DNA of 64,000 bases, taken from NCBI GenBank assembly GCA_964399295.1, contig CAYNQD010000002.1, positions 27,859 through 91,858 of the forward strand, written 5' to 3'. A model generated the notes under the pieces. The model was not told the origin of the DNA. It saw only the letters and a program-made list of their open reading frames with translations, and made no database searches. Every line of letters begins with the position of its first letter. The stretch's first letter is position 1. The DNA is from an uncultured Candidatus Saccharibacteria bacterium (GTDB taxonomy: Bacteria; Patescibacteriota; Minisyncoccia; Phycocordibacterales; UBA918). Shown piece by piece: positions 13,268-50,797 of the stretch. The position numbers were made by a program, and so were the translations under genes.

Positions 13268-13271
13268 AAAT

Positions 13272-14807
13272 ATGAGCACTTTCCATACATTTTTACAAAA
13301 AGGTTTAGTCTTTCTTTTTAGTTTGTGTTTGATGTTTGTTAGCGTTTATGTTCCGCAGCAACACCTTAATAACGTCCCCTCAGCTGAAGCTGGACTTGAC
13401 GCTACAGAACCAACCCAGATTAGAAATGAAATTCAACTTTTAGCCGTAAACGCTTGGACCTACGCGACTTCCATAGCCGCCATTGCTTTGGAATTAAAAG
13501 AATCTTGGCTTGACGGCATTGCCTGGGCGTTTGCTAAGGGCGTTATTGCCACCATGACGCGTAGCATTGTCAGATGGATAAATTCCGGCTTTCAAGGATC
13601 GCCGGCTTTTGTCCAGGATTTGCAAGCGCATTTACTGCGCGTGGGAGATATGATTTTTAATGAATTCGTGCATGAGATTGGCGCGGCCCCTTATGTTTGT
13701 GGACCTTTCCGCTTAAATTTACAAATAGCTTTGAGTACCAGCTACCAACACTACAACCGAGCCGGCTATCCCAGGGGCACTCCGAGGTGTACGATAAGCG
13801 GAGTAATGGCGAACTTGGAAAACTTTGTCAATGGTGCCTTTACTTCAGATGGCTGGGATCAATGGTTTAGAGTCACTACTCAGCCCAATGTCTACACTCC
13901 TTATGGTAGTTTTTTGACACTCCGGGGCGAGGCCGCTCTTAGGATAGGCAGTACCCAGCACAACGCCGGAGCGATTTTGAATTATGGTGATGGCTTTATG
14001 TCAAATGTTGTTTGTAGCACCATATCTGCTGTTGGATTTGATAAAGAACGATGTCTGGTCTCGACTCCTGGACACGTTATTAGTGAAACTTTAACCCACC
14101 ATTTGGGAGCTGGTTTGGAAAGTTGGATCGCGGCTGACGAAATCAATGAGATTATCGGGTCTTTGCTAGGACAATTGGCAAATAGGGCTTTGAGCGGAGC
14201 AGCCGGACTGTTGGGCTTGTCTGGGGGAACTGGTTATACCGATACGAGCTATGCTGGTTTTGATCCTCTTAATCAACGCCCATTCGTGGAACAATTGGTG
14301 TTTGAGCAAGAAGGTACTTCTAGCAGCACTCTTATCGCTGAAGCCACAAGAATGGTGCAGGCCGCTACCGCCATGGAGCAAGAATATCTTGACGTAGCAA
14401 ATGATTATAAAGCAGTGTTAATGTTTAGGAATACACCTGCTTCCATAGCAGCAGCGGCTCATATAACTAATTCCATAGAAAACCCGAATTTCCCTGGATC
14501 ACCAGCTTACAACTTGGCTAGAATAAATGCTCTTGTTGATGGAGTTAATAACGAAACTATCAGTTATGAACATGCTATCCAGGAGTTCAACACTCTTAAT
14601 CTCCATACTTCAAATGACCTCTCCTTAAAGGAAGGTGAGTGGAATCTGCTGCTTAGAGATTTGATATCAGACCAAATAGCCAGAGAAGGAGGTGTCGGTG
14701 CTACATCAAATATAGCGGACCTTAATCAGGTACAGCTGCTTGTCAATAGCGGCAGAAACAGAGAGGCGGTTAAGTTATTTAGCACCTTAATACCTTTCCT
14801 AAACTAA
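13272..14807 (+). CDS. hypothetical large secreted/membrane protein (T4SS-like cluster)
   Basis: 512 aa from the ATG at 13272, in frame with the track ORF. N-terminal hydrophobic signal (LVFLFSLCLMFVSVYV), a second hydrophobic helix, and several Cys. Confidence 0.5.
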   Translation: MSTFHTFLQKGLVFLFSLCLMFVSVYVPQQHLNNVPSAEAGLDATEPTQIRNEIQLLAVNAWTYATSIAAIALELKESWLDGIAWAFAKGVIATMTRSIVRWINSGFQGSPAFVQDLQAHLLRVGDMIFNEFVHEIGAAPYVCGPFRLNLQIALSTSYQHYNRAGYPRGTPRCTISGVMANLENFVNGAFTSDGWDQWFRVTTQPNVYTPYGSFLTLRGEAALRIGSTQHNAGAILNYGDGFMSNVVCSTISAVGFDKERCLVSTPGHVISETLTHHLGAGLESWIAADEINEIIGSLLGQLANRALSGAAGLLGLSGGTGYTDTSYAGFDPLNQRPFVEQLVFEQEGTSSSTLIAEATRMVQAATAMEQEYLDVANDYKAVLMFRNTPASIAAAAHITNSIENPNFPGSPAYNLARINALVDGVNNETISYEHAIQEFNTLNLHTSNDLSLKEGEWNLLLRDLISDQIAREGGVGATSNIADLNQVQLLVNSGRNREAVKLFSTLIPFLN

Positions 14808-14830
14808 CGCAAAATAAAGACTTACCAAAT

Positions 14831-17056
14831 ATGCTTAAAATAATACTAAGAAACAAAACTACATATTCACTACTACTGTCGGTAGCCTGTCTCTTGGTGT
14901 TGTTTATACCCATGCTGGCTTTAGGACAAGCAGACGGTGGTGCTGGAAAAAAAACCGAGGACGATTCCCTGATTCAGAATCTGCTTTGGGGACTTGTGAA
15001 TGGGGTTTTTGGTTTTCTCGTTTGGTTGTCCGGCAAGCTACTGGATACCGCCGTGACAACTTTTGTAATCGGCTTTGGAGAATTGTACAACACCAGTGGC
15101 TTAGGTTTTGCGGTAGACAATCTCTGGCGAGTGGTGCGTGACATCTTTAACCTTACCTTTATATTTGGCCTTGTTTACATCGGATTCAAGATGATTCTAA
15201 ACAGCGGAGACACCAACGCCAAAAGGTTGTTAATTAACATTATTATGGCTGCCCTTTTGGTAAACTTCAGTCTGTTCTTTACCAAGTTTATAATTGAATT
15301 CTCAAACGTGGCCGCCACTCAAGTGGCCAGTGCCTTTGATGCTGGCGGTGGGGATTATCAGGTATCTGGTAAGTTTATGAACGCAATGGGTTTATCCAGT
15401 ATATTTGCCGATGACGGCAGTATGACTAACGCTTTTGGCACCAACACCGGAAATGGCTATACTTATATTTTCGGAACTTTATTCTTATTTATTGTGACGG
15501 CCTTTGCCTTTTTTGCCGGCGGTATACTTCTGATGATTAGATTTGCCGTTCTAAATCTATACATGATTTTGTCTCCGATTATGTTTTTAGGTTGGGTATT
15601 TCCTTCTCTGGCCAGCTATTCGGCTACGTATTGGCGCAGTTTCCTAGGCCGTGCTTTCTATGCGCCCGCTTATCTACTGATGCTGTATTTCTGTTTCGTT
15701 GTTTTCAATGAATTTGCTGCTGTAACTAGGTCTGGCAGTCTTTCCAAAGTCCTAACCGATGCCAATAGCGCGCAGTCAGATTTTGCCTCTACCATTCCTT
15801 ATTTTGCTATCATGATTATATTCCTTCTGGCTTCAATTGTGATTGGCCAGAAAATGGGTGCTGAAGGTGGAGCTTACATGGTATCAATGGGTAAAGGCGC
15901 GGCCAGCCGTGGCGGAAGAATGTTAAAGCGAACTGCCGGTGCAGCTACTTTTGGCCTAACAGCCAAAGCTGGACGACAAGTGATTGGAGGCACAGCCAAT
16001 AAGATAGCTGAAAGTAAAGGTCTTCGAGAATGGGCTGCAAAAAGTAAAGCTGGAGAGACACTTCTTAAAGGTACTCGTAGGGTAGCAGATTCTTCTTTTG
16101 ACGCTAGAAAGATTGGTGGCATGGGAACCGCTCTTGGAATTGGTGAGGGAGCCAAGAGTGGTTACGCTACTCAAATTAAAGAGCAGAATAAGGCCGATGA
16201 AGAATTCTCCAATTCACTAACCAGAAAAACTAGGGGCTACGATGGCAAACTTACCGAAGACGCAGCCAAAGCGGTAGATAAAGCCTTAACTGAAGATAAA
16301 GAATTGCAAGGACTAAGAGATTTGCAGGGAACTGCCGATAAGAATATAGAAAACCTCACCACCAAGAAAACAGACACGGAGAAAGAAAAGGCGGAAAAAG
16401 AGACTGCGATAGCAGAAGCTAAGGAAGCTGGGAATACAGAAGCGCAAGAAAATCTTGAAAAAGAACTGTCTCATCTTGATAAAACCCTAACCAATCTAGA
16501 CAAAGACATAGCTAACGCTAATCAAATAAAAGACACTACCGCGAAAAATATTGAAAATCAAGAAAAGAAAATCAGTACCAAAGCCGAGGCGGACTACAAA
16601 TACGCCGATCGAATCGCTTTCCGAGAGCATCGTCGTGAGATAGCTGAATCCTGGAGAAATAGAGGAACGCTTGGAGCCGGCATTGCTGGAGGAGCAGCTG
16701 GAGTAGGAGCAGCCGGTTTGATTGCCAGCACCGCCGGATTAGCCGCTTTACCACTGGCTTTGACAATACTTTCCGGCGCAGCCGTTGGAGGAGCAGCTGG
16801 AGTAGGAGCAGCCAGGGGCTACGCCGAAAGAAACGACCGAAGCGCCATGAACCTCATGCAAAGATACGGACGACAAGGAGAAGATATCGCCAAAGTAGAC
16901 AAGGCCAACAATGACTTAAAAGTCATCCATGACAGGCTAAAAGCTATAGGAGGAGAAGGGGACAAAAAACAAACTTCATCTGACTCCGACAAGCAAACTC
17001 CACCCCCGCCACCACCAAATCCAGGTACAGGTACGGCCTCTACACCAAACCCATAA
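14831..17056 (+). CDS. VirB6/TrbL-like polytopic membrane protein with extended C-terminus
   Basis: 741 aa. About 8 predicted TM helices in the first 340 aa. Then a coiled-coil region (aa 440-570), a Gly/Ala-rich hydrophobic stretch (GIAGGAAGVGAAGLIASTAGLAALPLALTILSGAAVGGAAGVGAA) and a C-terminal PPPPPPNPGTGT tail. Sits three genes upstream of the VirB4-like gene. Confidence 0.45.
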   Translation: MLKIILRNKTTYSLLLSVACLLVLFIPMLALGQADGGAGKKTEDDSLIQNLLWGLVNGVFGFLVWLSGKLLDTAVTTFVIGFGELYNTSGLGFAVDNLWRVVRDIFNLTFIFGLVYIGFKMILNSGDTNAKRLLINIIMAALLVNFSLFFTKFIIEFSNVAATQVASAFDAGGGDYQVSGKFMNAMGLSSIFADDGSMTNAFGTNTGNGYTYIFGTLFLFIVTAFAFFAGGILLMIRFAVLNLYMILSPIMFLGWVFPSLASYSATYWRSFLGRAFYAPAYLLMLYFCFVVFNEFAAVTRSGSLSKVLTDANSAQSDFASTIPYFAIMIIFLLASIVIGQKMGAEGGAYMVSMGKGAASRGGRMLKRTAGAATFGLTAKAGRQVIGGTANKIAESKGLREWAAKSKAGETLLKGTRRVADSSFDARKIGGMGTALGIGEGAKSGYATQIKEQNKADEEFSNSLTRKTRGYDGKLTEDAAKAVDKALTEDKELQGLRDLQGTADKNIENLTTKKTDTEKEKAEKETAIAEAKEAGNTEAQENLEKELSHLDKTLTNLDKDIANANQIKDTTAKNIENQEKKISTKAEADYKYADRIAFREHRREIAESWRNRGTLGAGIAGGAAGVGAAGLIASTAGLAALPLALTILSGAAVGGAAGVGAARGYAERNDRSAMNLMQRYGRQGEDIAKVDKANNDLKVIHDRLKAIGGEGDKKQTSSDSDKQTPPPPPPNPGTGTASTPNP

Positions 17057-17065
17057 TAGATAAAT

Positions 17066-17575
17066 ATGCCAAATCAACAATTACAAGAAAGAATACAAGA
17101 ACTTGAACCTCTCTATCGAGAATACATCTTGAGTGATGATATCGCGGAAATTGCCAAGGAATTTTCGGAGGTGCACGGGTTTGATGAGACAAACGCCAAC
17201 CTGCTTGAGAATGGAATATTCTTATTTATGCTGTTTTTCATAAATAAGAAAACTTTAGTGGACTTTATTGTCAAGAATTGTAGATTAGAACAACACGAAG
17301 CGGCGGTTTTGGTGGAGGCTATCATCATGTCTGTACCAGACAATATTCGCGCCATGCAAACAAAGACCAGTCTGGTGATTTTCTCAGAAACTGATCCCAA
17401 AGATACTACCGAAAAGGAGATACTAGAGACCGAAACCTCAATCGAGTACTTAAATTCCATACGCACCATGCCGGCAGATAAACAGCAAAATAATGAAACT
17501 ACTCACACCAGCACTCAATCCGCCATCTTGAATGACAGACCACCATTCTCAAACACATCACAGCCAAAACAGTAA
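17066..17575 (+). CDS. hypothetical small acidic protein (T4SS-like cluster)
   Basis: 169 aa, no TM, acidic. Confidence 0.4.
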   Translation: MPNQQLQERIQELEPLYREYILSDDIAEIAKEFSEVHGFDETNANLLENGIFLFMLFFINKKTLVDFIVKNCRLEQHEAAVLVEAIIMSVPDNIRAMQTKTSLVIFSETDPKDTTEKEILETETSIEYLNSIRTMPADKQQNNETTHTSTQSAILNDRPPFSNTSQPKQ

Positions 17576-17621
17576 TCTTATTGTTTGCAACAAATAGTTG
17601 CCTATACACAAAATAATAATC

Positions 17622-17650
17622 ACTTTTCGTGCTAAAAGTGTATAATGTAT
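17622..17650 (+). promoter_or_regulatory. candidate extended -10 promoter (tgtataatg) for the VirB3-like/VirB4 genes
   Basis: TGnTATAAT at 17638-17646, about 20 nt upstream of the ATG at 17668. Confidence 0.35.
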
Positions 17651-17667
17651 TTTGTACGCAGACAAAT

Positions 17668-18078
17668 ATGAGATTTGAAGTTCCACAGTTTATTGATATT
17701 GAAGATAAGATTTTTGGGCCTCTTACTTGGCGTCAATTCCTGTACCTAGGAGGCGGAGTAGGTATGGGCGTGGTTTTATTTTTCATAAATAAATTATTGT
17801 TTCTTTTTGTTGGACTGCCGTTGGCTATTTTGGCCGGCGCGCTGGCTTTCTACCCTGTAAACAACCGGCCGTTCTCTTTTTTTCTGGAAGCGATATTCAA
17901 TTACCTAGGCAGCGATAAGCTGTACCTATGGAAACAAAAAGATGAAATTATCCATAAAAACCTTTTTACCCCCAGCACGGTAGGCGGAAATCCTCCAGAA
18001 AGCCCCAGCCGAACAATCAAAAACACCGCCTCGCTCGCTCGTCGCCTGGAATTAGAAGCTATTCAAAAAAAAGAATAA
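17668..18078 (+). CDS. PrgI/VirB3-like small membrane protein
   Basis: 136 aa from the ATG at 17668. Short cytoplasmic N-terminus then two hydrophobic helices (LYLGGGVGMGVVLFFINKLLFLFVGLPLAILAGALAFY). Directly upstream of the VirB4-like gene, as for VirB3-VirB4 pairs. Confidence 0.5.
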   Translation: MRFEVPQFIDIEDKIFGPLTWRQFLYLGGGVGMGVVLFFINKLLFLFVGLPLAILAGALAFYPVNNRPFSFFLEAIFNYLGSDKLYLWKQKDEIIHKNLFTPSTVGGNPPESPSRTIKNTASLARRLELEAIQKKE

Positions 18079-18079
18079 T

Positions 18080-18724
18080 ATGCCAAAATCAACCGCTGCC
18101 ACCCAACAATTTGTCGGTATTCGTGACATTAAAGATGGAATAGTAATTCTGAAATCAGGGCAAATGTGTACCATTCTTTTGGCTTCTTCCGTCAACTTCG
18201 CGCTCAAATCAATTGATGAACAGCAGGCGATTTTGCAGCAATTCCAGACTTTTCTTAACACTCTGGATTTTTCATTGCAGATTTACATTCAATCCCGACG
18301 CTTAAATATCGAGCCCTACATTGAGCTTCTAAAGACCAGAGAGGCCCACCAAGACAATGACCTTATGAGGATTCAGCTTCGCGAATACATTGAATTCATT
18401 CAAACGTTTACCAATGAGGTCGATATCATGAGCAAGAACTTTTTTGTGGTGGTCCCGTATTCTCCGATACCAGTTAATATCACCAAAGGAATAACGTCAC
18501 TGTTTTCCACCGCTCCCAAAACAAACACGCCAACGGAAATGCGTTTTGAAGAGCAGCGCACTCAGCTGGAGCAGAGAGTGGCCGTGGTCGAACAAGGATT
18601 GGGGCGGGTGGGGGTACGCACCACGCCGCTGAAGAACGATGATTTGGTGGAATTATTTTATCATACCTACAACCCGATTGACCCCGCAGGCTCAGCTCCC
18701 ACCTTTAACAAAGCGGACTTCTAA
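18080..18724 (+). CDS. VirB4-like ATPase, N-terminal domain ORF
   Basis: 214 aa. FVGIRDIKDGIVILKSGQMCTILLASSVNFALKSIDEQQAILQQFQTFLNTLDFSLQIYIQS matches the conserved N-terminal domain of Gram-positive-type VirB4/TraC/PrgJ-family ATPases. Ends 10 nt before the next ORF. Confidence 0.65.
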   Translation: MPKSTAATQQFVGIRDIKDGIVILKSGQMCTILLASSVNFALKSIDEQQAILQQFQTFLNTLDFSLQIYIQSRRLNIEPYIELLKTREAHQDNDLMRIQLREYIEFIQTFTNEVDIMSKNFFVVVPYSPIPVNITKGITSLFSTAPKTNTPTEMRFEEQRTQLEQRVAVVEQGLGRVGVRTTPLKNDDLVELFYHTYNPIDPAGSAPTFNKADF

Positions 18725-18734
18725 TACCAAAACC

Positions 18735-20525
18735 ATGAGCATATTTGACCAATTCAAACCGAATAACAACCAAACTCCAAAGATCAGCGATCAGCTCTTG
18801 ACTTTGGTCGACGTGGTGGCTCCTTCCGCCGTCAACATCACTCCACGAGGAATAAATTTAAGCGGGGTTGAGGCTAGAGTACTCTACGCTGTATCTTATC
18901 CTCACTATTTGAATGCCAGCTGGATGGAACCGGTCTTAAACATAGACAAGGAAATTGACGTTTCCATATACATTCACCCCATCGACACTGCTGAGAGCTT
19001 GAAAAAATTTCAAAAAAAAGTAGCTGAGGTGCAAAGCCAGATCAACATAAAAGCTGAGAAAGGCGAGGTTCGTGACCCGCAACTGGAAGCAGCCTACCGC
19101 AACCTGGAAGAACTGCGCGACCGACTACAACAAGCGGAAGAAAAACTTTTTAACGTCGGCTTTTACATTGCCATTTATGGTAATGATGAAAAAACTCTAA
19201 ATAAAGCTGAAAATGATATCAAGGGTATCTTGGACTCCAGACTGATTTACCTTAAGCCGGCTTTGTTTCAACAAGAGCCGGGTATGCAAAGTATTTTCCC
19301 CACGGCTACAGATAAGCTCTTGGTTCACAGCAAATTCAACTCCTCACCGCTATCAAGCTTCTTTCCTTTTACTTCTTTTGACCTCACTTCCGATACCGGT
19401 ATTCTTTATGGTATCAACCGCCACAATTCTTCCTTGGTTTTATTTGATCGTTTTTCTTTGACCAACTACAACTCAGTTACCTTCGCCACTTCCGGTGCTG
19501 GAAAATCTTACGCTCTGAAGCTCGAGATTTTGCGTTCGCTGATGTTTGGTACGGAAGTAATCGTACTTGATCCAGAACGAGAATATGAATATTTGGCCGA
19601 AGCTACCGGTGGACGTTTCTTTAATATTTCTCTGTCTTCAGATCACCACATCAATCCCTTTGACTTGCCACCGCCACAACCAGATGAAGACCCGAGAGAT
19701 GTGCTTCGGACTCATATTATTGAATTGATTGGTTTATTTAGACTGATGCTTGGGGGATTGGCGCCGGAAGAAGAGACTATTCTCGATCTCGCCATTCAGG
19801 AAACTTACGCCTTGCGTGACATCACCGGCGACGCTGATTTTTCAGAACAAGAGCCGCCGCTACTTTCAGACTTTGAGATGGTACTGGCCGGTATGGACGG
19901 CAGCAATTCACTGATTACCCGCCTGCAAAAGTACACTTCCGGTACCTGGTCTGGCTTTATGAACAAGCCCACCAACGTCGATATCAATCAAAAATTCGTG
20001 GTTTTCTCTTTGCGCGACATGGAAGACGAGCTAAAGACCATCGCCATGTACATCATCACCAACTTCATTTGGGGTTCTGTGCGCCGACGCATGACCAAAA
20101 GACTGTTAGTCATTGATGAGGCTTGGTGGATGATGAAATCAGAAGATACGGCTTCATTTTTATTCAGTCTAGCCAAGCGCGGTCGAAAATATTACTTGGG
20201 CATAGCCACCATCACTCAAGACGTGGACGATTTCTTACGCTCTCCCTACGGTGTACCAATGATTACCAACTCCTCAATTCAATTCCTAATGAAACAATCC
20301 GCCACCGCCATTGATAATATTCAAAAAACCTTCAACCTCACCGATGAAGAAAAGTTTTTGCTGCTGGAATCAAACGTAGGGGAGGGGATATTTTTTGCCG
20401 GCCTAAAACACGTAGCCGTAAAAGTAATCGCTTCCTACACTGAAGACCAAATCATCACCTCCGATCCATCACAACTTCTGCAAATCAAGAAAGCCAGAGA
20501 AGAATTGCAACTGTCCCGCTCATAA
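18735..20525 (+). CDS. VirB4/TrbE/CagE-like T4SS ATPase, ATPase domain ORF
   Basis: 596 aa from the ATG at 18735. Walker A FATSGAGKSYALK, Walker B LLVIDEAWWMM, and DPEREYEYL/GIATITQD motifs typical of VirB4-family ATPases. Confidence 0.75.
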   Translation: MSIFDQFKPNNNQTPKISDQLLTLVDVVAPSAVNITPRGINLSGVEARVLYAVSYPHYLNASWMEPVLNIDKEIDVSIYIHPIDTAESLKKFQKKVAEVQSQINIKAEKGEVRDPQLEAAYRNLEELRDRLQQAEEKLFNVGFYIAIYGNDEKTLNKAENDIKGILDSRLIYLKPALFQQEPGMQSIFPTATDKLLVHSKFNSSPLSSFFPFTSFDLTSDTGILYGINRHNSSLVLFDRFSLTNYNSVTFATSGAGKSYALKLEILRSLMFGTEVIVLDPEREYEYLAEATGGRFFNISLSSDHHINPFDLPPPQPDEDPRDVLRTHIIELIGLFRLMLGGLAPEEETILDLAIQETYALRDITGDADFSEQEPPLLSDFEMVLAGMDGSNSLITRLQKYTSGTWSGFMNKPTNVDINQKFVVFSLRDMEDELKTIAMYIITNFIWGSVRRRMTKRLLVIDEAWWMMKSEDTASFLFSLAKRGRKYYLGIATITQDVDDFLRSPYGVPMITNSSIQFLMKQSATAIDNIQKTFNLTDEEKFLLLESNVGEGIFFAGLKHVAVKVIASYTEDQIITSDPSQLLQIKKAREELQLSRS

Positions 20526-20538
20526 ACACCTATAATGT

Positions 20539-21375
20539 ATGGCTACTTATCCAAATTCAAATATACGCAACGTTAAAAAAGTTGACCGCCAAAGAATCAA
20601 TGATGATTGGGAATATTTGGAGGAGCCGGCTTTATCCCACAATCCCAGCACGGATGAACTGTTTAACAAGACCTACAAAAGCAGTGGTTTGCAAGCCACC
20701 ACCTCTTCCAATATCAGAAATCCTAAAAAAATTAACTCGGAGGCAGGAAACGATGCTACAACAAACACCTACAAAGCAAAATCATCTTACGGTCAAACAT
20801 ATAATGATTTTGATAGTTATGACGACGATTATGGACCGAAAGCAAAAGATAAAAAAGTAAAGATACCTGGCGGAAGAACTTCACCAATTCTTAGACTGAA
20901 AGCCAATATAGAAGCTTCCCGGATTATATTTTGGGTGGGTCAAAAATATATAATGCTCCAACTTCCTTTCGCGATTTTATCGATAATCGGTCTGGGAGCA
21001 TCACTTTACCTGTCGGGAGATTTTAGTAATTCCGGCAATTCCACGAGTACTGGTTTGGTTGATAGTGCCGTGAGCGCTGTGGTTGGTGCCACCGACATCG
21101 TCGTTAGGGGAGTAGCCAATTTCTTTGGAGCTGGTTATTTAACTTTTGCGCTATTTGCCATTCCTCACATGTTTGTTCTCTCCCTAGGAATTTTTGTCCT
21201 TATGACTGTTTATATTCAGTTTACAATGAAATCAATAAAACCCCTATCCGGCGACCACGCCAGCGCAAAGATAGGAACTTTCCTCCTAGCGATACTAGGC
21301 TTCGCCATTCCCATATTAAATTTATTTCCCATTATTTTATTCTGGATATTCACAGTTAGGAAATACCCAAAATAG
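20539..21375 (+). CDS. hypothetical membrane protein (disordered N-terminus, four C-terminal TM helices)
   Basis: 278 aa. The hydrophobic C-terminal half was read directly. Confidence 0.45.
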   Translation: MATYPNSNIRNVKKVDRQRINDDWEYLEEPALSHNPSTDELFNKTYKSSGLQATTSSNIRNPKKINSEAGNDATTNTYKAKSSYGQTYNDFDSYDDDYGPKAKDKKVKIPGGRTSPILRLKANIEASRIIFWVGQKYIMLQLPFAILSIIGLGASLYLSGDFSNSGNSTSTGLVDSAVSAVVGATDIVVRGVANFFGAGYLTFALFAIPHMFVLSLGIFVLMTVYIQFTMKSIKPLSGDHASAKIGTFLLAILGFAIPILNLFPIILFWIFTVRKYPK

Positions 21376-21422
21376 GTGGTTAAGGTGGTTTTTTTGGATT
21401 TTAGTTTGTTATTATAATAACC

Positions 21423-22379
21423 ATGAGATACTTTATATTAATTTTAGTCGCATTAATGCCTTTAGATTTTTCTAGTGCCCAGATTAGTTCTGAGCCCGGA
21501 CAAATGGGAGTGAGTATAGTTTTGGAAAACGACAATATTAAACCCTTCTCCGCCAACACCGCTTCTTTGGACAATTACTCTCTATCACTTCAAGTTACCA
21601 ACATCAGCTGGAAAATTGACGGCCGAACAATCCCTGAAGCCCAAAATCAAAGGTCTGTTGAATTCACTTCTAAAGACGTCGGTCAGACTACCACTATTGA
21701 AGTGACAGTTGAAACTTTTGAAAAACTCAACTTCTCAGCCAAAAGGATCGTTACACCCATCTATTTGGACATAATATTTGAACCCCAAACCAAAACCCCA
21801 AGTTTTTACAAAGGTCGAGCATTGCCTAGTATTTTTAGCACCGTAAATTTAACCGCCTTGGTCAACGGCACTCCAGACAATGCTAATAATTACATTTACA
21901 ACTGGTCACTAAATGACACCAATATCACCGGCGGTGCTTTGCGAGGAAAGTATAAAGTATCAACCGAAGTACCGGCCGGCTACCAAAACGTCATTGTCCT
22001 GTCTGTCAGCACTCTTGATGGCATACCAGTCGCCAGTCGCAGCTTGGCTCTTAGTTCCGTGGAGCCAAAATTATTATTTTATGAAACCAACACTCTGCAC
22101 GGAATCAAAAACATCCCCATCAGAGATTCCCTAAACCTAATCGGCAACAGCGTTAGCGTCAAAGCTGAGCCTTATTACATAGATATAAACACCTACAATA
22201 AGCCCGGGCTTTTGGAGTGGAAAGTTGATGGCATCAGAAGCCCGAGCAGCGGAAACAATCCTTACGAAGTAACGTTGTCTAAGCAAGGACTAAACGGAGT
22301 ATCTAATGTTAATTTTCACGTCCGAAATTTAAACAACTTTATACAAGGAACCCAAGGTAGCTTTAAGGTAAATTTTTAA
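21423..22379 (+). CDS. hypothetical secreted protein
   Basis: 318 aa. Signal peptide MRYFILILVALMPLDFSSAQ. Beta-rich, with two internally similar segments. Confidence 0.45.
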   Translation: MRYFILILVALMPLDFSSAQISSEPGQMGVSIVLENDNIKPFSANTASLDNYSLSLQVTNISWKIDGRTIPEAQNQRSVEFTSKDVGQTTTIEVTVETFEKLNFSAKRIVTPIYLDIIFEPQTKTPSFYKGRALPSIFSTVNLTALVNGTPDNANNYIYNWSLNDTNITGGALRGKYKVSTEVPAGYQNVIVLSVSTLDGIPVASRSLALSSVEPKLLFYETNTLHGIKNIPIRDSLNLIGNSVSVKAEPYYIDINTYNKPGLLEWKVDGIRSPSSGNNPYEVTLSKQGLNGVSNVNFHVRNLNNFIQGTQGSFKVNF

Positions 22380-22385
22380 AAATAT

Positions 22386-23564
22386 ATGAATAAGCCAATT
22401 TTTATCATTATCGGAGCAATCATTATTTTTATATTGGTTTTGGTTTGGGCGTATTTAATGTTTTTTGGCACCCCCAAAAACATGCAGGATATTTTTGCTG
22501 ATTTAAATTTTCAAGAAAACTTAGAGGATGTCTCTATTAATGTTGTTACTGAGGATACTGTCGTTAATGTAAACAGGCCAGCCCTACGCCAACTAACCAC
22601 CAGACTGGTAGCGGGCTTTCGTGAAATAGACGCACCACCAACCGCCGATTTACCAACAATATACTACACAGAAATGGGAACCGGACATATTTACGCCATC
22701 AATCTTGAGTCTGGCGAAGAAACGAGAATATCAGGTACCACGGTTGTCGGTGTCAACAGCGCTTCCATTTCACCAAAAGGTGATTACGTGGCTTACGGCA
22801 TTGCCAATAGCAGCAAAAACATTAAGCTACTACTTGGAGAAATTAGCACCAGCAGTGATTTGGTGGCGGAAGAAATCAGCACTACTATTGATAAATTTTG
22901 GATCAATGACAACGGTAATGAATTGCTTTACACCACCAGGGAAGAAATTGGTTTGGTGGCATATTCATACAACCTAGCCAATTCCACCAAGAGAAATGTC
23001 TTTTCATTACCTTATCACGAAGCGTTGATACAGTGGGGAAGCACGGCCACGGCAGCGCATTATGTTTATCCAAAGCCAGCTTATTTATTTGAGGGTTATT
23101 TATCCGAAATAACCGGCAATAAAATTAAGCGTTTGCCGGTTGATGGCTACGGATTTTCCGGTTTGGCCAACAAAGATATCGTGGCGTACAGCACTTTGGA
23201 CAGACAGGATGTTAAGAGCTACATCTACAACAAAACCAACAACACCCACAACCCATTCCCTCTACAAATTAATTTTATGCCAGAAAAGTGTATTATCTCT
23301 AAAAATAACAACAACCTAATCTGCGCCTACGACACCACCGCCAAAATGGCTGAATTCCCCGACAGCTGGTATCAGGGGGTGACTAGTTTTAAAGATTCGT
23401 TGTGGCTGGTTTCTGGAGATGCTCTGTCGGCCCAATTCCTAGTGGACACTTTCACCGCCAGCAATCGCGAGATTGATATTACCGATTTAAGCATTGGCAG
23501 CAGCGAACGAGCGGTTTATTTTATAAACAAAAACGATAACACTCTTTGGATGTATGAATTATAA
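22386..23564 (+). CDS. hypothetical secreted/signal-anchored protein
   Basis: 392 aa. N-terminal TM IFIIIGAIIIFILVLVWAYLMFF. Confidence 0.45.
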   Translation: MNKPIFIIIGAIIIFILVLVWAYLMFFGTPKNMQDIFADLNFQENLEDVSINVVTEDTVVNVNRPALRQLTTRLVAGFREIDAPPTADLPTIYYTEMGTGHIYAINLESGEETRISGTTVVGVNSASISPKGDYVAYGIANSSKNIKLLLGEISTSSDLVAEEISTTIDKFWINDNGNELLYTTREEIGLVAYSYNLANSTKRNVFSLPYHEALIQWGSTATAAHYVYPKPAYLFEGYLSEITGNKIKRLPVDGYGFSGLANKDIVAYSTLDRQDVKSYIYNKTNNTHNPFPLQINFMPEKCIISKNNNNLICAYDTTAKMAEFPDSWYQGVTSFKDSLWLVSGDALSAQFLVDTFTASNREIDITDLSIGSSERAVYFINKNDNTLWMYEL

Positions 23565-24261
23565 AACTTTACTACTATTTATAATTTTAGTCGCTCCGCT
23601 GTCGGCTTTGGCTCAGGGTTATGTGTCACTAGTTTCTATTCCTGGAGTTAGCGATCCGACAGGTGGGGGTTTTAACGACTACATAAACGCCCTCTACGTG
23701 CTGTCTATCAGTATTGCCGCCTTATTGGCTGTTATCAAGATAATCATCGCCGGCGTAAAGTGGATGTTGTCTGATGTCGTGACCAGCAAGCAAGAAGCTA
23801 AAAGTGACATCTGGGGAGCCACCATCGGCTTACTAGTCGTTATCTCGGCGGTTTTGGTACTAAATGTAATCAACCCACAGCTAATAGAGTCAGATATCGT
23901 ATTTACCAAGCCACACGAATTCCAATCACAGTCACCTACATTTAGCAAAACTCGGCCTGCTCTGAGCCCTGGTGATACAGAGACAGTTATGAAACTCGAA
24001 GACCATCAGAAGTGTGTACATGATATACAGGGAGAATGGTACGTAGAAACAGATGGTCTTAATAATTACCAATATTGGTGTATTAAAAAAGCCAATAAAG
24101 CTTTCTTGAACCCTGAGCAGTTTGCTTGCAACGCCACAACTCAGACCTGTGACTCTAACGACAAGTTTGCCTGTGAAAGTAATTTCAACGGTATATGGGA
24201 ATATCCTTATATAACTGATATGGGAACTGCACAATACTATAGGGCTAAGTGTGTTTATTAA
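23554..24261 (+). CDS. VirB2/TrbC-topology pilin-like protein with cysteine-rich C-terminal domain
   Basis: 235 aa. Signal peptide (..PLSALAQG) then two hydrophobic helices separated by a charged loop (..LLAVIKIIIAGVKWMLSDVVTSKQEAKSDIWGATIGLLVVISAVLVLNVINP), which is the classic T4SS pilin topology. C-terminal about 110 aa contains 8 Cys. Confidence 0.45.
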   Translation: MNYKTLLLFIILVAPLSALAQGYVSLVSIPGVSDPTGGGFNDYINALYVLSISIAALLAVIKIIIAGVKWMLSDVVTSKQEAKSDIWGATIGLLVVISAVLVLNVINPQLIESDIVFTKPHEFQSQSPTFSKTRPALSPGDTETVMKLEDHQKCVHDIQGEWYVETDGLNNYQYWCIKKANKAFLNPEQFACNATTQTCDSNDKFACESNFNGIWEYPYITDMGTAQYYRAKCVY

Positions 24262-24278
24262 CCACATCTAGTTTAGGC

Positions 24279-24317
24279 ACCAAAAGCCCCGCGCCTTAGG
24301 CGCGGGGCTTTTGGTGT
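24279..24317. terminator. bidirectional GC-rich hairpin terminator (caccaaaagccccgcgcc-ttag-gcgcggggcttttggtg)
   Basis: Lies between convergent stops of the pilin-like gene and yidC. Confidence 0.7.
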
Positions 24318-25504: not shown

Positions 25505-25654
25505 TTATTGGGCTTTTTTTACCGTCAATTGCGCTCGTCCTTTGCGTCGTCTGGACAATAGGACCTTGGCTCCGGAAGGAGTAGCTGAGCGCACCAAAAA
25601 ACCGTGGGTAGTCGCTCTTTTTCTCTTGCTTGGTTGATAAGTTCTTTTACTCAT
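25505..25654 (-). CDS. rpmH: 50S ribosomal protein L34
   Basis: Manual translation of the minus strand gives [49 protein letters not shown] (49 aa), a canonical L34. It is below the ORF-track size cutoff. Confidence 0.85.
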
Positions 25655-25730
25655 AAATAATATTAGCTATCTGCAAATTACCGACACACTATACATGATT
25701 GAATAAATAATTCAATAGGGCAGGGTACAA

Positions 25731-25808
25731 CCTTGCCCAATCACAAAGCCATTTGCGGAGGGCGGATATTGGGGTGGCGGGCGAAGCAAATGGCTTTGTG
25801 ATTGGGCA
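25731..25808 (+). repeat. GC-rich palindromic element, copy R1: 21-bp inverted-repeat stem (ttgcccaatcacaaagccatttgc / gcaaatggctttgtgattgggca) around core ggagggcggatattggggtggcgggcgaa
   Basis: Read directly. Related copies occur at 38374-38411 and 43354-43438 (core in inverted orientation). Confidence 0.6.
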
Positions 25809-25835
25809 GCTACGTGGTGATGACTAAACTCCAAA

Positions 25836-25855
25836 TTATGCACAAGTTATGCACA
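25836..25855 (+). promoter_or_regulatory. two direct TTATGCACA DnaA-box-like 9-mers (25836-25844, 25847-25855) upstream of dnaA
   Basis: One mismatch from the TTATCCACA consensus, 11-bp phasing. Followed by a tataat -10 at 25936-25941. Confidence 0.5.
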
Positions 25856-25964
25856 GTTGCGTTTTTTGATTTTTAAAAAAACCATACTTTTGGCAGTTTT
25901 TTAGAAAAAAATTTTACAGCTTCCAGAATGCGGGTATAATTCCTTGTATCTCTCTTTCATTGTT

Positions 25965-28781: not shown

Positions 28782-29072
28782 ATGGCTAAAAGGCGCGGGG
28801 AAATTGTTGCGGTTAGGGATTTGTTTGAAAAGTATCGTAAAACCCTGCAAGCACCGCAAAAGACAGTAGAAATAGAATCCATAAGAGTAGTTGGGGAGTT
28901 GTTTAATGTTAAATTAACCGAACAGCAGGTAAAATATACGGTAGCAACCAAGACCTTATATATATCGGCTTCAAGTTTGATTAAGCAAGAATTGAAATTT
29001 CAACATGAGGTGATTTTAAAGGAACTTAAAAAGCGATTGGGTTTGAAAAATTCACCGCAGTGTATTTTGTAA
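28782..29072 (+). CDS. DUF721 (DciA-like) protein
   Basis: 96 aa. Its position immediately after dnaN and the pattern VGELFNVKLTEQQVKYTVATKTLYISASSLIKQELKFQHEVILKELKKRLG match DUF721 proteins found next to dnaN. Confidence 0.5.
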   Translation: MAKRRGEIVAVRDLFEKYRKTLQAPQKTVEIESIRVVGELFNVKLTEQQVKYTVATKTLYISASSLIKQELKFQHEVILKELKKRLGLKNSPQCIL

Positions 29073-29129
29073 CCCACGCGACATAAAAGCGGCGCGCCCG
29101 AAAGGCGCGCCGCTTTTATGTCGCGTGGG
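29073..29129. terminator. 27-bp-stem perfect palindrome (acccacgcgacataaaagcggcgcgcc-cgaaag-ggcgcgccgcttttatgtcgcgtgggt) between convergent stops
   Basis: Read directly. Shares an identical 32-nt core with the hairpin at 32692-32746. Confidence 0.75.
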
Positions 29130-31376
29130 TTACTCACCACTCACCTCCTCTGTACCTGTGCTGTTATTTGGCTCGTTAAGGCTGTAGGTTTCGTTTTTCC
29201 AGAGCTGGACGGCATATTCCCAATTCTCGTACTGATCGTCGGCGTAGGGGTTGCTGGGGGCAGGGCCAAGTGGGTCATTTTTGTTTACAAAATGAAGAAT
29301 GGTGTGGATGTTGTTGTAGATAGAACTAAAGTCAAGTTCTTGATTATTTTGCATCATTTCAAACAGGTGGGTGGTGTCTATGTATTCACCGCGAATAATT
29401 GGCTTTACACCCACTCGGTTTATGGTGGGTTTGGCGAAGTCTTCTTTGGGTAATTTCTCCAAAGCCAAATCCATATAATCACGCCACATCGGAGTAACAA
29501 TCAAGCCGGAAAGGCCGTTCATGGATGAGGGGGTATTATTTCCCACCCAGACACCAACCGCCAGATTGGGAGCGTATCCCATCAGCCAAGCGTCGTAGAA
29601 ATTGTTGGTACTACCAGTCTTGGAAGCCACGGAGCGGTTGGGAAAATTCACCAATGAATTCGCTCCCCAAAGCGGAGTACGAGCGACATTGTCCGACAAA
29701 ACATCACTAATCATCAGAGCGATATTTTTATCAAGAACGCGCTTGGTGGTGATGGAATTTTCTTCAATGACATTACCTCTGGTATCTTCTATTTTTAAAA
29801 TAGAGCGCGGCTCAGCCTTCGTTCCTTCGTTGGCAAAAACGCCGTAGGCATAGGTCATGTCTATCAATCTCACTTCACCACCACCCAACACAAGCGTTAG
29901 TCCGTAGCGTTCCGGATCTTTTAGGTTGGTGAGGCCCATGTCGGAAGCTAGTTTTATGGAATCATTAATACCCGCTAAATACAAAACTTTCACTGCCGGA
30001 ATATTGAGCGATTGAGCCAAAGCGTTTCTGAGATTGATAGGGCCGACGTATTTGTGGTTGTAGTTGCTTGGTGAATAACAGGGTGATTCAGAACTACCGC
30101 TGTTGGCCGGACAAAGCGGTGAAAATTGGGTTTTGACATCAAAAACCACCGTGTCCGGCAAATAACCTTTTTCAAAAGCTTTAGCGTAAATGAACGGCTT
30201 AATGGAAGACCCGGGCTGCCGTAAAGCCAAAGTCACGTTAAAATTACCATCAATATCTTCACTAAAATAATCCCGCGAACCGACCATTGTCAACAAATCT
30301 CCGGTTTTTGGATCAATAGCCACCAGACCGGCGTTGGTGGCGTTAAATCTTTCGATGTTGGTTAGTCCGCGTTCGTAGAGAATTCTTTCCGCTTCTTTTT
30401 GTAAGTCCCAATCAAGAGTGGTAATAACTTTCAAGCCGCGTTCCGACAAAACTTCCTCGCCGTATTTTTTAACCAACTGTTCGCGAATATACATGACAAA
30501 ATGCGGCGCGCGTATATTGCCGATGGCTTGCGGCTGAAAAACAACTTCAGTCGCAATAGCTTCGTCGTATTCTTCTTGGTTGATGAAGCTGTTTTTCAAC
30601 ATTCTTTCCAAGACCAGTCTTTGTCTTTTGTCTAGTTCGTTTCTGTTGTTTCCGTAAGGAGAAAGAAAGGTGGGAGCTTGCGGTAGGGAAGCGATGTAGG
30701 CTGATTCAGCTAAGTTTAGCTCTTTAGCGGATTTGCCAAAAAAAGACTGTGAGGCTTCTTCAACCCCGTAAACCGTTCCGCCGTAAGGAGATTCATTTAA
30801 ATAAATAGCTAGGATTTCATCCTTAGAAAAGTTTTTTTCCAATTTTATGGCCAAAATCCATTCTTTCACCTTACGTGTCAAAGTCTTTTCGTTTTGGAGG
30901 ATGGAGTTTTTTATGACTTGTTGGGTGATGGTGGAGCCTCCTTGTCCGCCTAGTAAATCGCCTTGGGTTAGGTTGACTACTACCGCCCTAATAATGGCTT
31001 TGGGTTCAATTCCAAAGTGGTTATAAAATTGATCGTCTTCAATGGCGATGGTGGCGTTTTTTATATGACGATTGATATTTTCAAATGGGACGATGGTTCT
31101 TTTTACATCTTGGTGGAGATCGTAGAGTAAAATTTCTCCGGTGCGGTCGTAAATTTTTGTGGACTGCAAAACCCGCCGCTCTTCAAAAGCGGATAAGTCA
31201 GGAATTTTTAGCGTTGATACCCAAATTAGAAAAACCGCCAACAAGACGATTGCTAGCGCAAAAATAATAATAAAAAGGTCGATAATGATGTTTTTAAAGC
31301 TGCGCGGCGCGCGTATGAATTTTTTTATTCCCATAATTCTGTTTATTTCCAATATATAGAACCAATAGTAGCACAA
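29130..31376 (-). CDS. bifunctional penicillin-binding protein 1A (glycosyltransferase plus transpeptidase)
   Basis: 748 aa. N-terminal TM, GT51 motifs (IEDDQFYNHFGIEPKAI; GGSTITQQVIKN), transpeptidase SxxK (SSIKPF), SxN and KTG (KTGST). Confidence 0.88.
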   Translation of the reverse strand: MCYYWFYILEINRIMGIKKFIRAPRSFKNIIIDLFIIIFALAIVLLAVFLIWVSTLKIPDLSAFEERRVLQSTKIYDRTGEILLYDLHQDVKRTIVPFENINRHIKNATIAIEDDQFYNHFGIEPKAIIRAVVVNLTQGDLLGGQGGSTITQQVIKNSILQNEKTLTRKVKEWILAIKLEKNFSKDEILAIYLNESPYGGTVYGVEEASQSFFGKSAKELNLAESAYIASLPQAPTFLSPYGNNRNELDKRQRLVLERMLKNSFINQEEYDEAIATEVVFQPQAIGNIRAPHFVMYIREQLVKKYGEEVLSERGLKVITTLDWDLQKEAERILYERGLTNIERFNATNAGLVAIDPKTGDLLTMVGSRDYFSEDIDGNFNVTLALRQPGSSIKPFIYAKAFEKGYLPDTVVFDVKTQFSPLCPANSGSSESPCYSPSNYNHKYVGPINLRNALAQSLNIPAVKVLYLAGINDSIKLASDMGLTNLKDPERYGLTLVLGGGEVRLIDMTYAYGVFANEGTKAEPRSILKIEDTRGNVIEENSITTKRVLDKNIALMISDVLSDNVARTPLWGANSLVNFPNRSVASKTGSTNNFYDAWLMGYAPNLAVGVWVGNNTPSSMNGLSGLIVTPMWRDYMDLALEKLPKEDFAKPTINRVGVKPIIRGEYIDTTHLFEMMQNNQELDFSSIYNNIHTILHFVNKNDPLGPAPSNPYADDQYENWEYAVQLWKNETYSLNEPNNSTGTEEVSGE

Positions 31377-32661: not shown

Positions 32662-32691
32662 GTGGAAAATATATTTATATGGGTACAAAAA

Positions 32692-32746
32692 GGTAAAGTA
32701 AAAGCGGCGCGCCCGAAGGGCGCGCCGCTTTTACTTTACCTTTTCT
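32692..32746. terminator. long palindromic hairpin (ggtaaagtaaaagcggcgcgcc-cgaag-ggcgcgccgcttttactttacc) between tyrS and the acidic ORF
   Basis: Read directly. Its core is identical to the 29073-29129 hairpin. Confidence 0.75.
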
Positions 32747-36282: not shown

Positions 36283-36575
36283 AATTGTTCTCAAGGGCCA
36301 AATCACTTTCTGGGTTGTTTGGAGGCGTATTTTTAAATTCAAGTCAGTTTTTCTAGACGATAACTCTCTAAGCAACCGGGGTACGTTGCGAGGCTTTTTT
36401 GGCTCTCACCTTTTGAGTGAGGGTGCTGAAAATTCTCTTAGCGCGGTATCCACTTTCAATGCGGAAGCTTTGCTTAGAGAGTTATCTTCTCGAAAATAGT
36501 AAAGAACTAAACAACTCCCTGACTATATCATAGCCAAAATAAAAAACAGCTTGACCGTAGCTGTTTTTTATTTTT
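36283..36575 (+). ncRNA. candidate structured non-coding RNA locus of unknown class
   Basis: Sigma70-like promoter (ttgaca 36245-36250, 17 bp, taggat). About 290-nt body with a 17-bp long-range inverted repeat (gataactctctaagcaa at 36363 / ttgcttagagagttatc at 36471) enclosing local hairpins. Strong terminator aacagcttgaccgtagctgtt plus T-run at 36546-36575. No ATG-initiated ORF longer than 24 codons. Confidence 0.35.
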
Positions 36576-36588
36576 GAGATCATGACTT

Positions 36589-38373: not shown

Positions 38374-38411
38374 TTACCCAACTCCACACTGTTTGCGACG
38401 GGCGGAGCAAA
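38374..38411 (+). repeat. GC-rich palindromic element, short copy R3 (cacactgtttgc-gacgggcggag-caaaccgtgtg)
   Basis: Shares the stem-end (CTGTTTGC/GCAAAC) and GGGCGGAG core with R1 and R2. Confidence 0.45.
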
Positions 38412-38519
38412 CCGTGTGTGGGTTTGTGGCCGGAGCTATTGTTTTATTCAAAAACTCAGGTATAGTAAATTACGGTTTCAAGTTAGTTATTTTTCAATAT
38501 TGGTTTGGAGGATGATGTG

Positions 38520-43353: not shown

Positions 43354-43438
43354 ATTGCCCCCACAGCAACTCACTATTTGCTCCGCCCTCCGCCCCAATA
43401 ACCGCCCTACGCAAACAGTGAGTTGCTGTGGGGGCAAT
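43354..43438 (-). repeat. GC-rich palindromic element, copy R2: 27-bp stem (1 mismatch) around core ctccgccctccgccccaataaccgccctacg, the reverse complement of the R1-type core
   Basis: Read directly. On the minus strand it aligns with R1 along its length, with a conserved GGGCGG(A/T)TATTGGGG(T/C)GG(C/A)GGGCG core. Confidence 0.6.
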
Positions 43439-49017: not shown

Positions 49018-49049
49018 GGGTATTATTTCCCTTAGTTTTTGGTGGAAAG

Positions 49050-49092
49050 AAAAGAGGCACGGCGCCTTTGGTGCCGTGCCTCTTTTCTTTAA
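49050..49092. terminator. bidirectional hairpin terminator (aagaggcacggcgcc-tttg-gtgccgtgcctctt) between convergent genes
   Basis: Read directly. Confidence 0.65.
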
Positions 49093-50571: not shown

Positions 50572-50671
50572 TGTCGGAACTCAATCAATGGACAAATCGT
50601 TTTAAGATTTATCTACTAAATAAAGTGGAGAAGTAAACTTCTCCGAATCTTAATCAAGTTGGAGGGAGGAG

Positions 50672-50797
50672 TTAGGACTCCTCCTCTTCATCCTCCTCCT
50701 CTTCTACCCAAAATCCATCCCCTTCTCCGCAGAAGGGGCACTCTTGTTCACCGGCGTGGATCCATTGCCCACAACCACTGCACTGTTGTGTGTTCAT
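50672..50797 (-). CDS. small zinc-ribbon protein with acidic tail (41 aa)
   Basis: Manual minus-strand translation gives MNTQQCSGCGQWIHAGEQECPFCGEGDGFWVEEEEDEEEES. Two CxxC pairs. RBS gggagag 5 nt upstream. Absent from the ORF track (below 60 aa). Confidence 0.5.
   Translation of the reverse strand: MNTQQCSGCGQWIHAGEQECPFCGEGDGFWVEEEEDEEEES

Follow-up and report, generated by a model that had tools for sequence, protein, structure and literature searches.

A rare family of intergenic hairpin repeats with a conserved loop and a variable stem in a few Patescibacteria

We analysed a stretch of 64,000 nucleotides (hereafter the window; 42.7% GC), positions 27,859 to 91,858 of contig CAYNQD010000002.1 from the assembly GCA_964399295.1 of an uncultured Candidatus Saccharibacteria bacterium. 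Its DnaA is matched best by proteins labelled Candidatus Nomurabacteria, Kaiserbacteria or Paceibacterota, which places the source in the Patescibacteria. The genes run in the order yidC-rnpA-rpmH, the divergent dnaA-dnaN, a PBP gene, tyrS, ruvC, yebC, ruvB, pilB, tsaE, polA, a tRNA-Lys gene and a SpoU methylase gene. An earlier note on this DNA, made from the sequence alone, had described three GC-rich palindromic loci between these genes, here called R1, R2 and R3, and all three are present where it placed them. Their features are as follows.

25733..25809, plus strand: R1, a full copy, recognised from its sequence, a 23-nt inverted repeat with 100% complementarity, its predicted fold and covariance-model matches
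25734-25756 and 25786-25808: the R1 arms, 23 nt and 100% complementary, with a terminal T.G pair at 25733/25809
25752-25756 and 25786-25790: the R1 clamp, TTTGC and GCAAA, around the 29-nt G-rich loop at 25757-25785, which reads GGAGGGCGGATATTGGGGTGGCGGGCGAA
43354..43438, minus strand (the G-rich strand): R2, a full copy, recognised from a 28-nt inverted repeat with 96% complementarity, its predicted fold and covariance-model matches
43354-43381 and 43411-43438: the R2 arms, 28 nt with one mismatch
43382-43410: the 29-nt R2 loop, which reads GTAGGGCGGTTATTGGGGCGGAGGGCGGA on the minus strand
38374..38432, plus strand: R3, a short, decaying copy, recognised from its sequence and a weak covariance-model match at 38383-38420
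38392-38411: the R3 core, TTTGC-GACGGGCGGA-GCAAA, with the loop GACGGGCGGA at 38397-38406; both clamps are kept and the arms are imperfect in the window

The full copies share one design, in which a near-perfect stem of 20-28 bp ends in a TTTGC/GCAAA clamp and presents a 29-nt unpaired loop, GGAGGGCGG-N5-GGGGYGGNGGGCGNA. On the G-rich strand, R1 and R2 read arm, TTTGC, G(G/T)A GGGCGG (A/T)TATT GGGG Y GG N GGGCG RA, GCAAA and complementary arm. Two direct GGNGGGCG repeats in the loop flank a variable 5-nt centre, for which the variants ATATT, TTATT, TACTA and GTATT were observed. Two exact occurrences of the 15-mer core are present in the window, and every further match to it has three mismatches and lacks a hairpin. 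The predicted fold of R1 has a free energy of -45.4 kcal/mol and a z-score of -6.2, and the z-scores relative to shuffled sequence are -9.1 to -9.4 for R2 and -2 to -3 for R3. R1 is carried unchanged by the Logan contig L073.

The earlier note had ended R3 at 38411, which places the locus correctly but cuts off the 3' arm, since this runs to about 38421-38432. R3 appears to be a deletion derivative; its loop is what would be left if a full loop had suffered a deletion between its two GGGCG(G) direct repeats. The statement that the core of R2 is inverted relative to its stems had to be abandoned: a palindrome's arms give one sequence whichever strand is read, so R2 is simply this element in minus-strand orientation. 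Arm base composition was likewise dropped as an orientation marker, the 5' arm of a palindrome being the same on both strands. The sole stem mismatch of R2 (A at 43376 and C at 43416 on the plus strand) is a G.U wobble on the G-rich strand, and the wobble at this place, stem position 6, is the only asymmetric stem marker, found on the G-rich strand both in R2 and in an independent copy from another organism (L081, below).

In total we recovered nine copies in six assemblies, six of them outside the window in five other Patescibacteria assemblies. A scan for the loop core in one genome per species (185,579 genomes) gave 22 matches, 18 of which were chance occurrences in GC-rich sequence or glycine codons without a hairpin, while four had the full architecture with unrelated arms. 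Two of these four are in Candidatus Elulimicrobium sp. (L006 and L018), one is in a Kaiserbacteria assembly (L012) and has a compensated change of the clamp to TTTCC/GGAAA, and one is in "bacterium GFS_3428" (L011) with a loop expanded by about 100 nt. A DNA pattern scan of metagenomes, with the loop centre left free, produced seven matches including one true copy with the centre TACTA (L064). The ninth copy, L081, with the loop GGAGGGCGGGTATTGGGATGGTGGGCGAA, was reached through a spurious 46-amino-acid open reading frame (ORF) in a search with the loop translation. No true copy was found in viral contigs or in phage and plasmid collections, nor did the covariance model with filters off detect a fourth copy in the window. 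As a detail of the expanded copy, L011 spans 6733-6908 on the minus strand between nusG and rplK and has 28-nt arms; the ~100 extra nt follow the G-rich core and contain a degenerate second copy of the 3' arm (ACAAACGGTGTAT).

Because patterns derived from R1 and R2 served to fetch most of the outside copies, the fixed positions are in part conserved by construction, which does not apply to the clamp, the hairpin or the copy L081. A leave-out covariance model, built from four non-window copies only, scored R1 at 77.5 bits (E 3e-17) and R2 at 66.7 bits (E 2e-14), with a borderline score for R3 of 18.9 bits (E 0.03). Another covariance-model run gave 81.4 bits for R1, 77.1 bits for R2 and 22.9 bits for R3 (38383-38420, E 0.004). 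Further support for R3 comes from its arms, which resemble those of R2 and L011 (CACACYGTTTGC), and from a sister strain, where a less decayed allele scored 34.8 bits. Together with the six outside copies, the leave-out values uphold the suggestion that this is a genuine family with further members elsewhere: a small, rare family of hairpin repeats in a few Patescibacteria is real. Since further copies exist, the outcome that the earlier note had named as a refutation did not occur. Gathering-threshold Rfam scans of the window and four related loci returned tRNAs only, and a permissive scan of R1 (E up to 10) returned only generic miRNA-hairpin models far below their thresholds. The family is absent from Rfam and from the literature searched, and its design, a conserved loop on a free stem, is unusual, although we class it as a variant within a known kind of element.

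The mean pairwise identity among copies was 87% in the loop and 93% in the 5-bp clamp, and dropped to 29%, about the random level, in the outer 15 nt of the arms. The constrained module is ~39 nt long and consists of the TTTGC/GCAAA clamp closing the 29-nt G-rich loop, in which variation is almost wholly confined to non-G positions, namely the 5-nt centre and positions 19, 22 and 28. Pairing is kept in 92.9% of the stem cells and both sides have changed in 10 of the 14 pairs; 500 shuffles gave no equally good result, and the pairing collapsed when the register was slid. The non-Watson-Crick pairs of the stem, read on the G-rich strand, are G.U or U.G in five cases and A.C in none, with one wobble position common to R2 and L081. 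This pattern suggests that the relevant form is a folded G-rich single strand, either RNA or DNA, which in the latter case could be the lagging-strand template, a cruciform or the substrate of an enzyme acting on single strands. The loop has a G4Hunter score of 1.48-1.66, and of seven copies folded with ViennaRNA, only two had a two-layer G-quadruplex (G4) predicted in the loop.

All nine copies are intergenic and occur in either orientation; in L006 one arm overlaps a stop codon. Four lie between divergent genes, four between tandem genes and one, L081, between convergent 3' ends. The three window copies are all in divergent spacers (R1 in rpmH/dnaA, R3 between pilB and a small ORF, R2 between tRNA-Lys and the SpoU gene), and they are solitary, 5-13 kb apart and at most 18 kb from dnaA. 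In the tandem spacers the G-rich strand is sense in three of the four cases, upstream of fusA, rplK and rpsA, and antisense in the fourth, L012 being antisense to both neighbours. The element is not a conserved part of the control region of any particular gene, because the nine copies occupy varied spacers and orientations. The promoter-like and DnaA-box-like sites around R1 are listed here for context.

25688..25715, minus strand: rpmH promoter-like site, TTGAAT-16-TATAGT, 18 nt from the left arm of R1 and present in relatives without R1; context only
25836-25844 and 25847-25855, plus strand: two DnaA-box-like 9-mers (TTATGCACA) between R1 and the dnaA promoter-like site; context only
25913-25940: dnaA promoter-like site, from the promoter scan

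R1 lies upstream of both neighbouring promoter-like sites. Its only upstream match to a promoter on the sense strand, at 25634-25663, lies over the rpmH start, and the -10 part of this match is not conserved in the relative L023. The promoter scan reported no upstream sense-strand site for R2 and no site whatever for R3. An association of the element with promoters was considered and is weakened by these sparse scan results and by the copy between convergent genes.

We also compared the dnaA region with eight syntenic loci from relatives (DnaA identity 85-96%, 160 kb in total). The rpmH promoter, the DnaA boxes and the dnaA promoter align across all eight loci, and the DnaA-box-like 9-mers are conserved in every aligned relative, whereas the R1 segment is not: it is unrelated in sequence, nearly gone or occupied by an inserted ORF. 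R3 is absent from the orthologous sites of the relatives, and the covariance model found no copy at all in the 160 kb. For R2, the SpoU protein of the next relative is only 72% identical, too distant to define an empty site. Copies have thus been gained or lost between related species. Target-site duplications, which the earlier note had named as a sign to look for, are not visible, there being no direct repeat at the hairpin borders of R1, R2 and L018, and the sites in the relatives are too diverged for the boundaries of an empty site to be defined.

A hot spot of change is the spacer (25716-25835) that separates the rpmH promoter from the DnaA boxes. This spacer is occupied by R1 in the window and by ~60 nt of unrelated sequence in L023, is almost empty in L027, and in L024-L026 contains an inserted ORF of 160-201 amino acids without a Pfam match (L024 9132-9737; L026 6228-6710).

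Differences between closely related strains were informative about the arms. The SpoU protein encoded beside R2 is 100% identical in the Logan assemblies SRR167979xx and SRR167980xx and is present as a 99% variant in SRR16797981, a strain sharing 99.1-99.5% identity with the window along ~29 kb, with a background of ~1 single nucleotide polymorphism per 110-150 nt. On the right side of R2 this strain has GA-GCAAAT where the window has AC-GCAAAC, and the three changes, located within 8 nt, all create complementarity to the left arm, so that a perfect 30-nt inverted repeat results. As judged from the two alleles, this cluster of changes is a quasipalindrome template-switch signature. In the sister-strain allele of R3 (L074 6636-6673), the 5' arm has gained AC and the 3' arm has a C>A change, giving a perfect 14-bp stem; the two strains differ at R3 in the stem only. 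Strain-level changes in the arms therefore restore or extend complementarity.

According to published work (PMC8794818, PMC8604942), template switching makes inverted repeats more uniform and longer and can imitate compensatory substitutions; in the Ripley model of quasipalindrome mutation, clustered changes perfect and lengthen an imperfect repeat, as at R2. It is a mutational process rather than a family of elements and accounts for the arms, not for the conserved loop. Because R2 shows such a change at the level of DNA, the covariation of the stem need not mean selection on an RNA. The family may therefore serve as a clean natural case of stem "covariation" produced by template switching and as a caution for RNA discovery that is based on covariation.

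All nine of the short-read contigs that reach R2 end inside it (L067-L072, L074, L075 and L077, from at least 8 sequencing runs), whereas contigs run unbroken through R1 and R3. For SRR16797981, the left contig terminates in ...CACTATTTGCTC and the right contig starts with GAGCAAATAGTGAG..., and these are exact reverse complements. Simulation of the assembly graph at k=31 gave no branch for the window allele of R2; the GA-GCAAAT allele predicted both contig ends of SRR16797981 to the base, and a mixture of two alleles or of two orientations predicted the start of L068. Since R2 ended every short-read contig that reached it, elements of this kind fragment metagenome assemblies of such organisms. 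As a separate observation, contigs identical to the window stop at 43395/43396 and 43419/43420, reproducibly across runs and as predicted by no model tried, which may reflect a loss of coverage at the hairpin or further heterogeneity.

Taken together, we consider R1-R3 to be low-copy, lineage-restricted extragenic DNA palindromes that behave like repetitive extragenic palindromic (REP) elements, and we would put the probability of this reading at roughly 40%. The evidence leans to a DNA-level element because there is no synteny, the taxonomic distribution is patchy, strains differ by indels and a template switch, and every kind of intergenic context is occupied; a DNA repeat is the best fit, ahead of an RNA. 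Length variants of the sort seen in repeats are also found, the loop being deleted in R3 and expanded by ~100 nt in L011. Among the possibilities raised in the earlier note (a structured RNA, a REP- or MITE-like unit, a protein-binding site), a REP-like element is thus favoured, although the strict definitions of REP elements and of miniature inverted-repeat transposable elements (MITEs) do not fit. What is inherited would be the ~39-nt module at the tip of a 20-28 bp inverted repeat, the sequence of which would drift freely. The arms would stay complementary, and sometimes lengthen, through intramolecular template switching during replication rather than through selection on an RNA helix. The hairpin is predicted to form either in single-stranded DNA at the replication fork or as a cruciform under negative supercoiling, and the loop is a candidate recognition site for a trans-acting factor that would read the G-rich strand of the extruded hairpin. 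Individual copies would be locally dispensable.

The likeness to REP, BIME and REPIN elements lies in short extragenic palindromes that form hairpins from one strand, occur in either orientation, are non-syntenic and carry compensatory stem changes. REP elements have been linked to mRNA ends, supercoiling and protein binding, and REPINs are mobilised by RAYT transposases. Their conserved parts are the stem and a GTAG/CGTC tag, with a small or variable loop, whereas here the loop and the clamp are conserved and the stem is free. The tag is absent, GTAG being found only in R2, where it starts the loop, and the outer arms are 29% identical. Copy numbers are tens to hundreds in REP and REPIN families and 1-3 per genome region here, and no RAYT gene is present among the 40 window ORFs scanned against Pfam, all of them outside a secretion-like cluster at about 13.2-24.3 kb. 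MITEs such as the Neisseria Correia elements are similar in size (about 80-150 bp), in having inverted repeats at the ends, in their intergenic positions near promoters and in the presence of length variants such as R3 and L011. However, their terminal repeats are conserved between copies and flanked by target-site duplications, in contrast to the outer-arm identity of ~29% and the lack of any visible duplication here.

Several observations weigh against a REP-like element. The number of copies is far under that of typical REP elements or MITEs, with three in about 70 kb of the source strain, 1-2 exact-core copies per assembly elsewhere and one or two more from the large collections of metagenomes and proteins. 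With so few copies, a selfish element would not be expected to retain a loop of 87% identity in different Patescibacteria lineages without selection, which argues for a function of the host or of a partner; seen together, the conserved loop and the scarcity of copies point towards a trans-acting partner that reads the loop. The five G.U pairs against no A.C pair could also reflect selection on one folded strand, possibly RNA. No partner was found among the 40 scanned window ORFs, neither a transposase, HUH or RAYT enzyme, nor an invertase or other recombinase partner, nor a Tas or Nop protein, and neither a target-site duplication nor the boundary of an empty site was definable. The formation of a G4, the extrusion of the hairpin and the binding factor are putative only.

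This is of interest since Patescibacteria genomes are tiny and densely packed, with very few repeats and few known regulators. For this reason, a 39-nt module that is conserved in scattered lineages probably has a partner worth finding. A more speculative proposal, which we hold to be improbable in its specific form, is that the loop is the chromosomal recognition module of an undescribed and patchily distributed trans-acting system of Patescibacteria, presented by a self-perfecting palindrome that would serve to expose the loop as single-stranded DNA able to form a G4. Such a system could consist of an enzyme specific for hairpins or single strands, or of an RNA-guided repressor of the TIGR-Tas kind with two guides matching the two half-sites. 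If true, recognition of the loop would represent a new kind of hairpin-presented regulatory or mobility site near housekeeping genes clustered at dnaA.

Three other classes were compared. HUH hairpin origins and nick sites, as used by rolling-circle Rep proteins, the IS200/IS605 TnpA and the geminivirus nonanucleotide, have an invariant loop on a compensating, variable stem and are read on one strand. These sites have short, A/T-rich loops with a defined nick position and lie beside the enzyme gene, in contrast to the 29-nt G-rich loop found here, for which there is no HUH gene among the scanned window ORFs. Integron attC sites carry R''/R' core sites (RYYYAAC / GTTRRRY) and extrahelical bases and adjoin a cassette array and intI, whereas the conserved stem ends here are TTTGC/GCAAA, the stems are perfect and free of bulges, and the 40 scanned ORFs include no integron integrase or cassette array. 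The stem-loop tigRNAs of TIGR-Tas systems in the candidate phyla radiation (CPR) resemble the family in being Patescibacteria hairpins of similar unit size whose stem is conserved only near the loop (bioRxiv 10.64898/2026.09.09.750476). They have box C/D motifs, a loop with two variable spacers and an arrangement in arrays next to a tas gene (bioRxiv 10.64898/2026.09.09.750476). Neither box C (RUGAUGA) nor box D (CUGA) is present on either strand of R1-R3. Membership in the tigRNAs was rejected, since besides lacking these boxes the loop is conserved (87%) rather than variable, the copies are solitary among housekeeping genes and no Nop-domain hit was obtained in the 40 window ORFs.

The alternative that survives best, and which we regard as possible but on balance doubtful, is that the G-rich strand is transcribed into a structured non-coding RNA or a cis-acting RNA hairpin, acting within the leaders or the 3' ends of neighbouring genes or as a small RNA. 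The long stem would then possibly present the 29-nt loop, as an RNA G4 or as a GGAGG Shine-Dalgarno-like decoy, to a protein or to the ribosome. A GC-rich structured unit in an AT-rich genome is a classic signature of new RNAs. The strong covariation of the stem around an invariant loop would also be expected for an RNA, but it is accounted for by the template-switch change observed, and perfect stems of 23-28 bp are unusual in functional RNAs. The restriction of non-Watson-Crick pairs to G.U on the G-rich strand (5 versus 0), including the position shared by R2 and L081, and the sense orientation of three of the four tandem copies, upstream of fusA, rplK and rpsA, both speak for a transcript, whereas L012 is antisense to both of its neighbours and L081 lies between convergent 3' ends. 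A source of transcription is not apparent in the window either: R1 is upstream of the rpmH and dnaA promoter-like sites and has only the sense match with the unconserved -10 part, and the scans found no upstream sense site for R2 and none for R3. Furthermore, no copy is followed by a U-tract terminator, the copies are missing at the orthologous sites of relatives, and there is no Rfam match.

Less likely again is a duplex DNA site for a regulator, a nucleoid protein or an RNA-guided repressor, bound at the two direct GGNGGGCG half-sites, which are 19 nt apart. The factor itself would be patchily distributed, and the palindrome would merely help to open or expose a site near the origin or a promoter. 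Two conserved loop blocks around a variable 5-nt centre agree with such a site, as does the retention of exactly one block in R3, but the flanking inverted repeat would be needless and is nevertheless present in every copy, and the strand-specific G.U pattern would be unexpected. The position of all three window copies within 18 kb of dnaA, and of four of the nine copies between divergent genes, fits a role near promoters; so do the distance of 18 nt between R1 and the rpmH -35 hexamer and that of ~24 nt between R2 and a weak tRNA-Lys promoter candidate, which was read by eye and not reported by the scan. L081 and L012, located between convergent genes and in antisense, are however not near promoters, and the element is not conserved at orthologous promoters. 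Catalytically dead TIGR-Tas systems of the CPR have been reported as RNA-guided repressors with two short spacers (bioRxiv 10.64898/2026.09.09.750476). Scanning 40 window ORFs brought up neither a candidate for the binding protein nor a guide RNA.

That the element is an inverton, with the arms serving as recombination sites and the loop flipping its orientation within the population, is very unlikely. All nine contigs end in R2 even though the window allele alone gives no branch at k=31, the start of L068 is the exact branch point for a mixture of two orientations or two alleles, and template switching has been reported to invert the spacers of inverted repeats (PMC8604942). On the other hand, the only variant allele seen keeps the left junction in the orientation of the window and is reproduced by a single haplotype with the perfect 30-nt repeat; an inversion of R2 in the sister strain, our first reading of L072, was discarded for this reason, as one allele explains both contig ends. 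There is no promoter-like element in the 29-nt loop and no adjacent invertase gene, the contigs across R1 and R3 are unbroken, and the breaks at 43395/43396 and 43419/43420 fit neither the inversion nor the allele model.

A chance likeness of unrelated GC-rich hairpins can be practically dismissed: many other long perfect palindromes occur in the genome and R3 by itself is borderline (E 0.03), but the leave-out E-values of 3e-17 and 2e-14 and the recurrence of the same loop, clamp and hairpin in six copies from other organisms, one of them found independently of DNA patterns, are contrary to it. The same holds for ordinary terminators, since the loop is 29 nt long, no T-tract follows the stem and the terminator scan called nothing at R1, R2 or R3, while the terminator-like palindromes of the genome differ in having 1-5 nt between the arms and a GCGGCGCGCC tip. 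A coding reading was also tried, as one frame of the loop translates to FAEGGYWGGGRSK with the variable positions on third codon positions. It was rejected on the grounds that the frame lacks a start codon and is interrupted by a stop in R2, that YW is replaced by TR in L064, and that G-tracts have a GGN periodicity in any case.

Bacterial G4 elements such as the pilE G4 of Neisseria gonorrhoeae offer a further comparison, as they too are strand-specific intergenic G-rich tracts with conserved G runs in an AT-rich genome. The loop here has only three runs of at least three G, which would at best permit a predicted two-tier or bulged G4, and differs in being embedded in a long palindrome.

Apart from R1-R3, the window contains a second and unrelated family of long perfect palindromes, at 75-127, 24278-24316, 29069-29133, 32688-32744 and 49046-49090. 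These have arms of 19-30 nt separated by 1-5 nt, GC-rich tips (..AAAAGCGGCGCGCC / GGCGCGCCGCTTTT) and outer runs of A and T, and they look like bidirectional intrinsic terminators at gene ends. A 27-nt inverted repeat with 93% complementarity and a 94-nt spacer (36349-36375 / 36470-36496) is located in a 560-nt non-coding stretch between a methyltransferase gene and the 3' end of pilB, and is followed by a terminator-like hairpin at 36527-36583. It could be an unannotated RNA, and had no Rfam match. A perfect 19-nt inverted repeat with a 62-nt spacer (57727-57745 / 57808-57826) lies inside the phosphoglucose isomerase ORF.

The products of the window rpmH and of the ORF at 62815-63237 had no matching record. 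The sole recombinase among the 40 scanned ORFs is an Xer-like integrase at 120-1037. The secretion-like cluster resembles a type IV secretion or conjugation system (about 13200-24261; TrbL-like, PrgI, TraC-like and a VirB4/TraG-type ATPase) and adjoins yidC-rnpA-rpmH in the window; it is found next to these genes in all relatives examined (L023-L029), the labels being those of Pfam for the syntenic genes. Two further differences between strains were seen. In the 99% strain, ~90 nt (L072 7178-7268) stand in place of about 2.2 kb of the window (50586-52779) that hold a TrmB-family regulator, a short-chain dehydrogenase and part of a NADAR-domain gene. At window position 35618 the sister strain has ~225 nt extra (L074 3644-3869), and its methyltransferase is 216 amino acids long compared with 162 for the window ORF.

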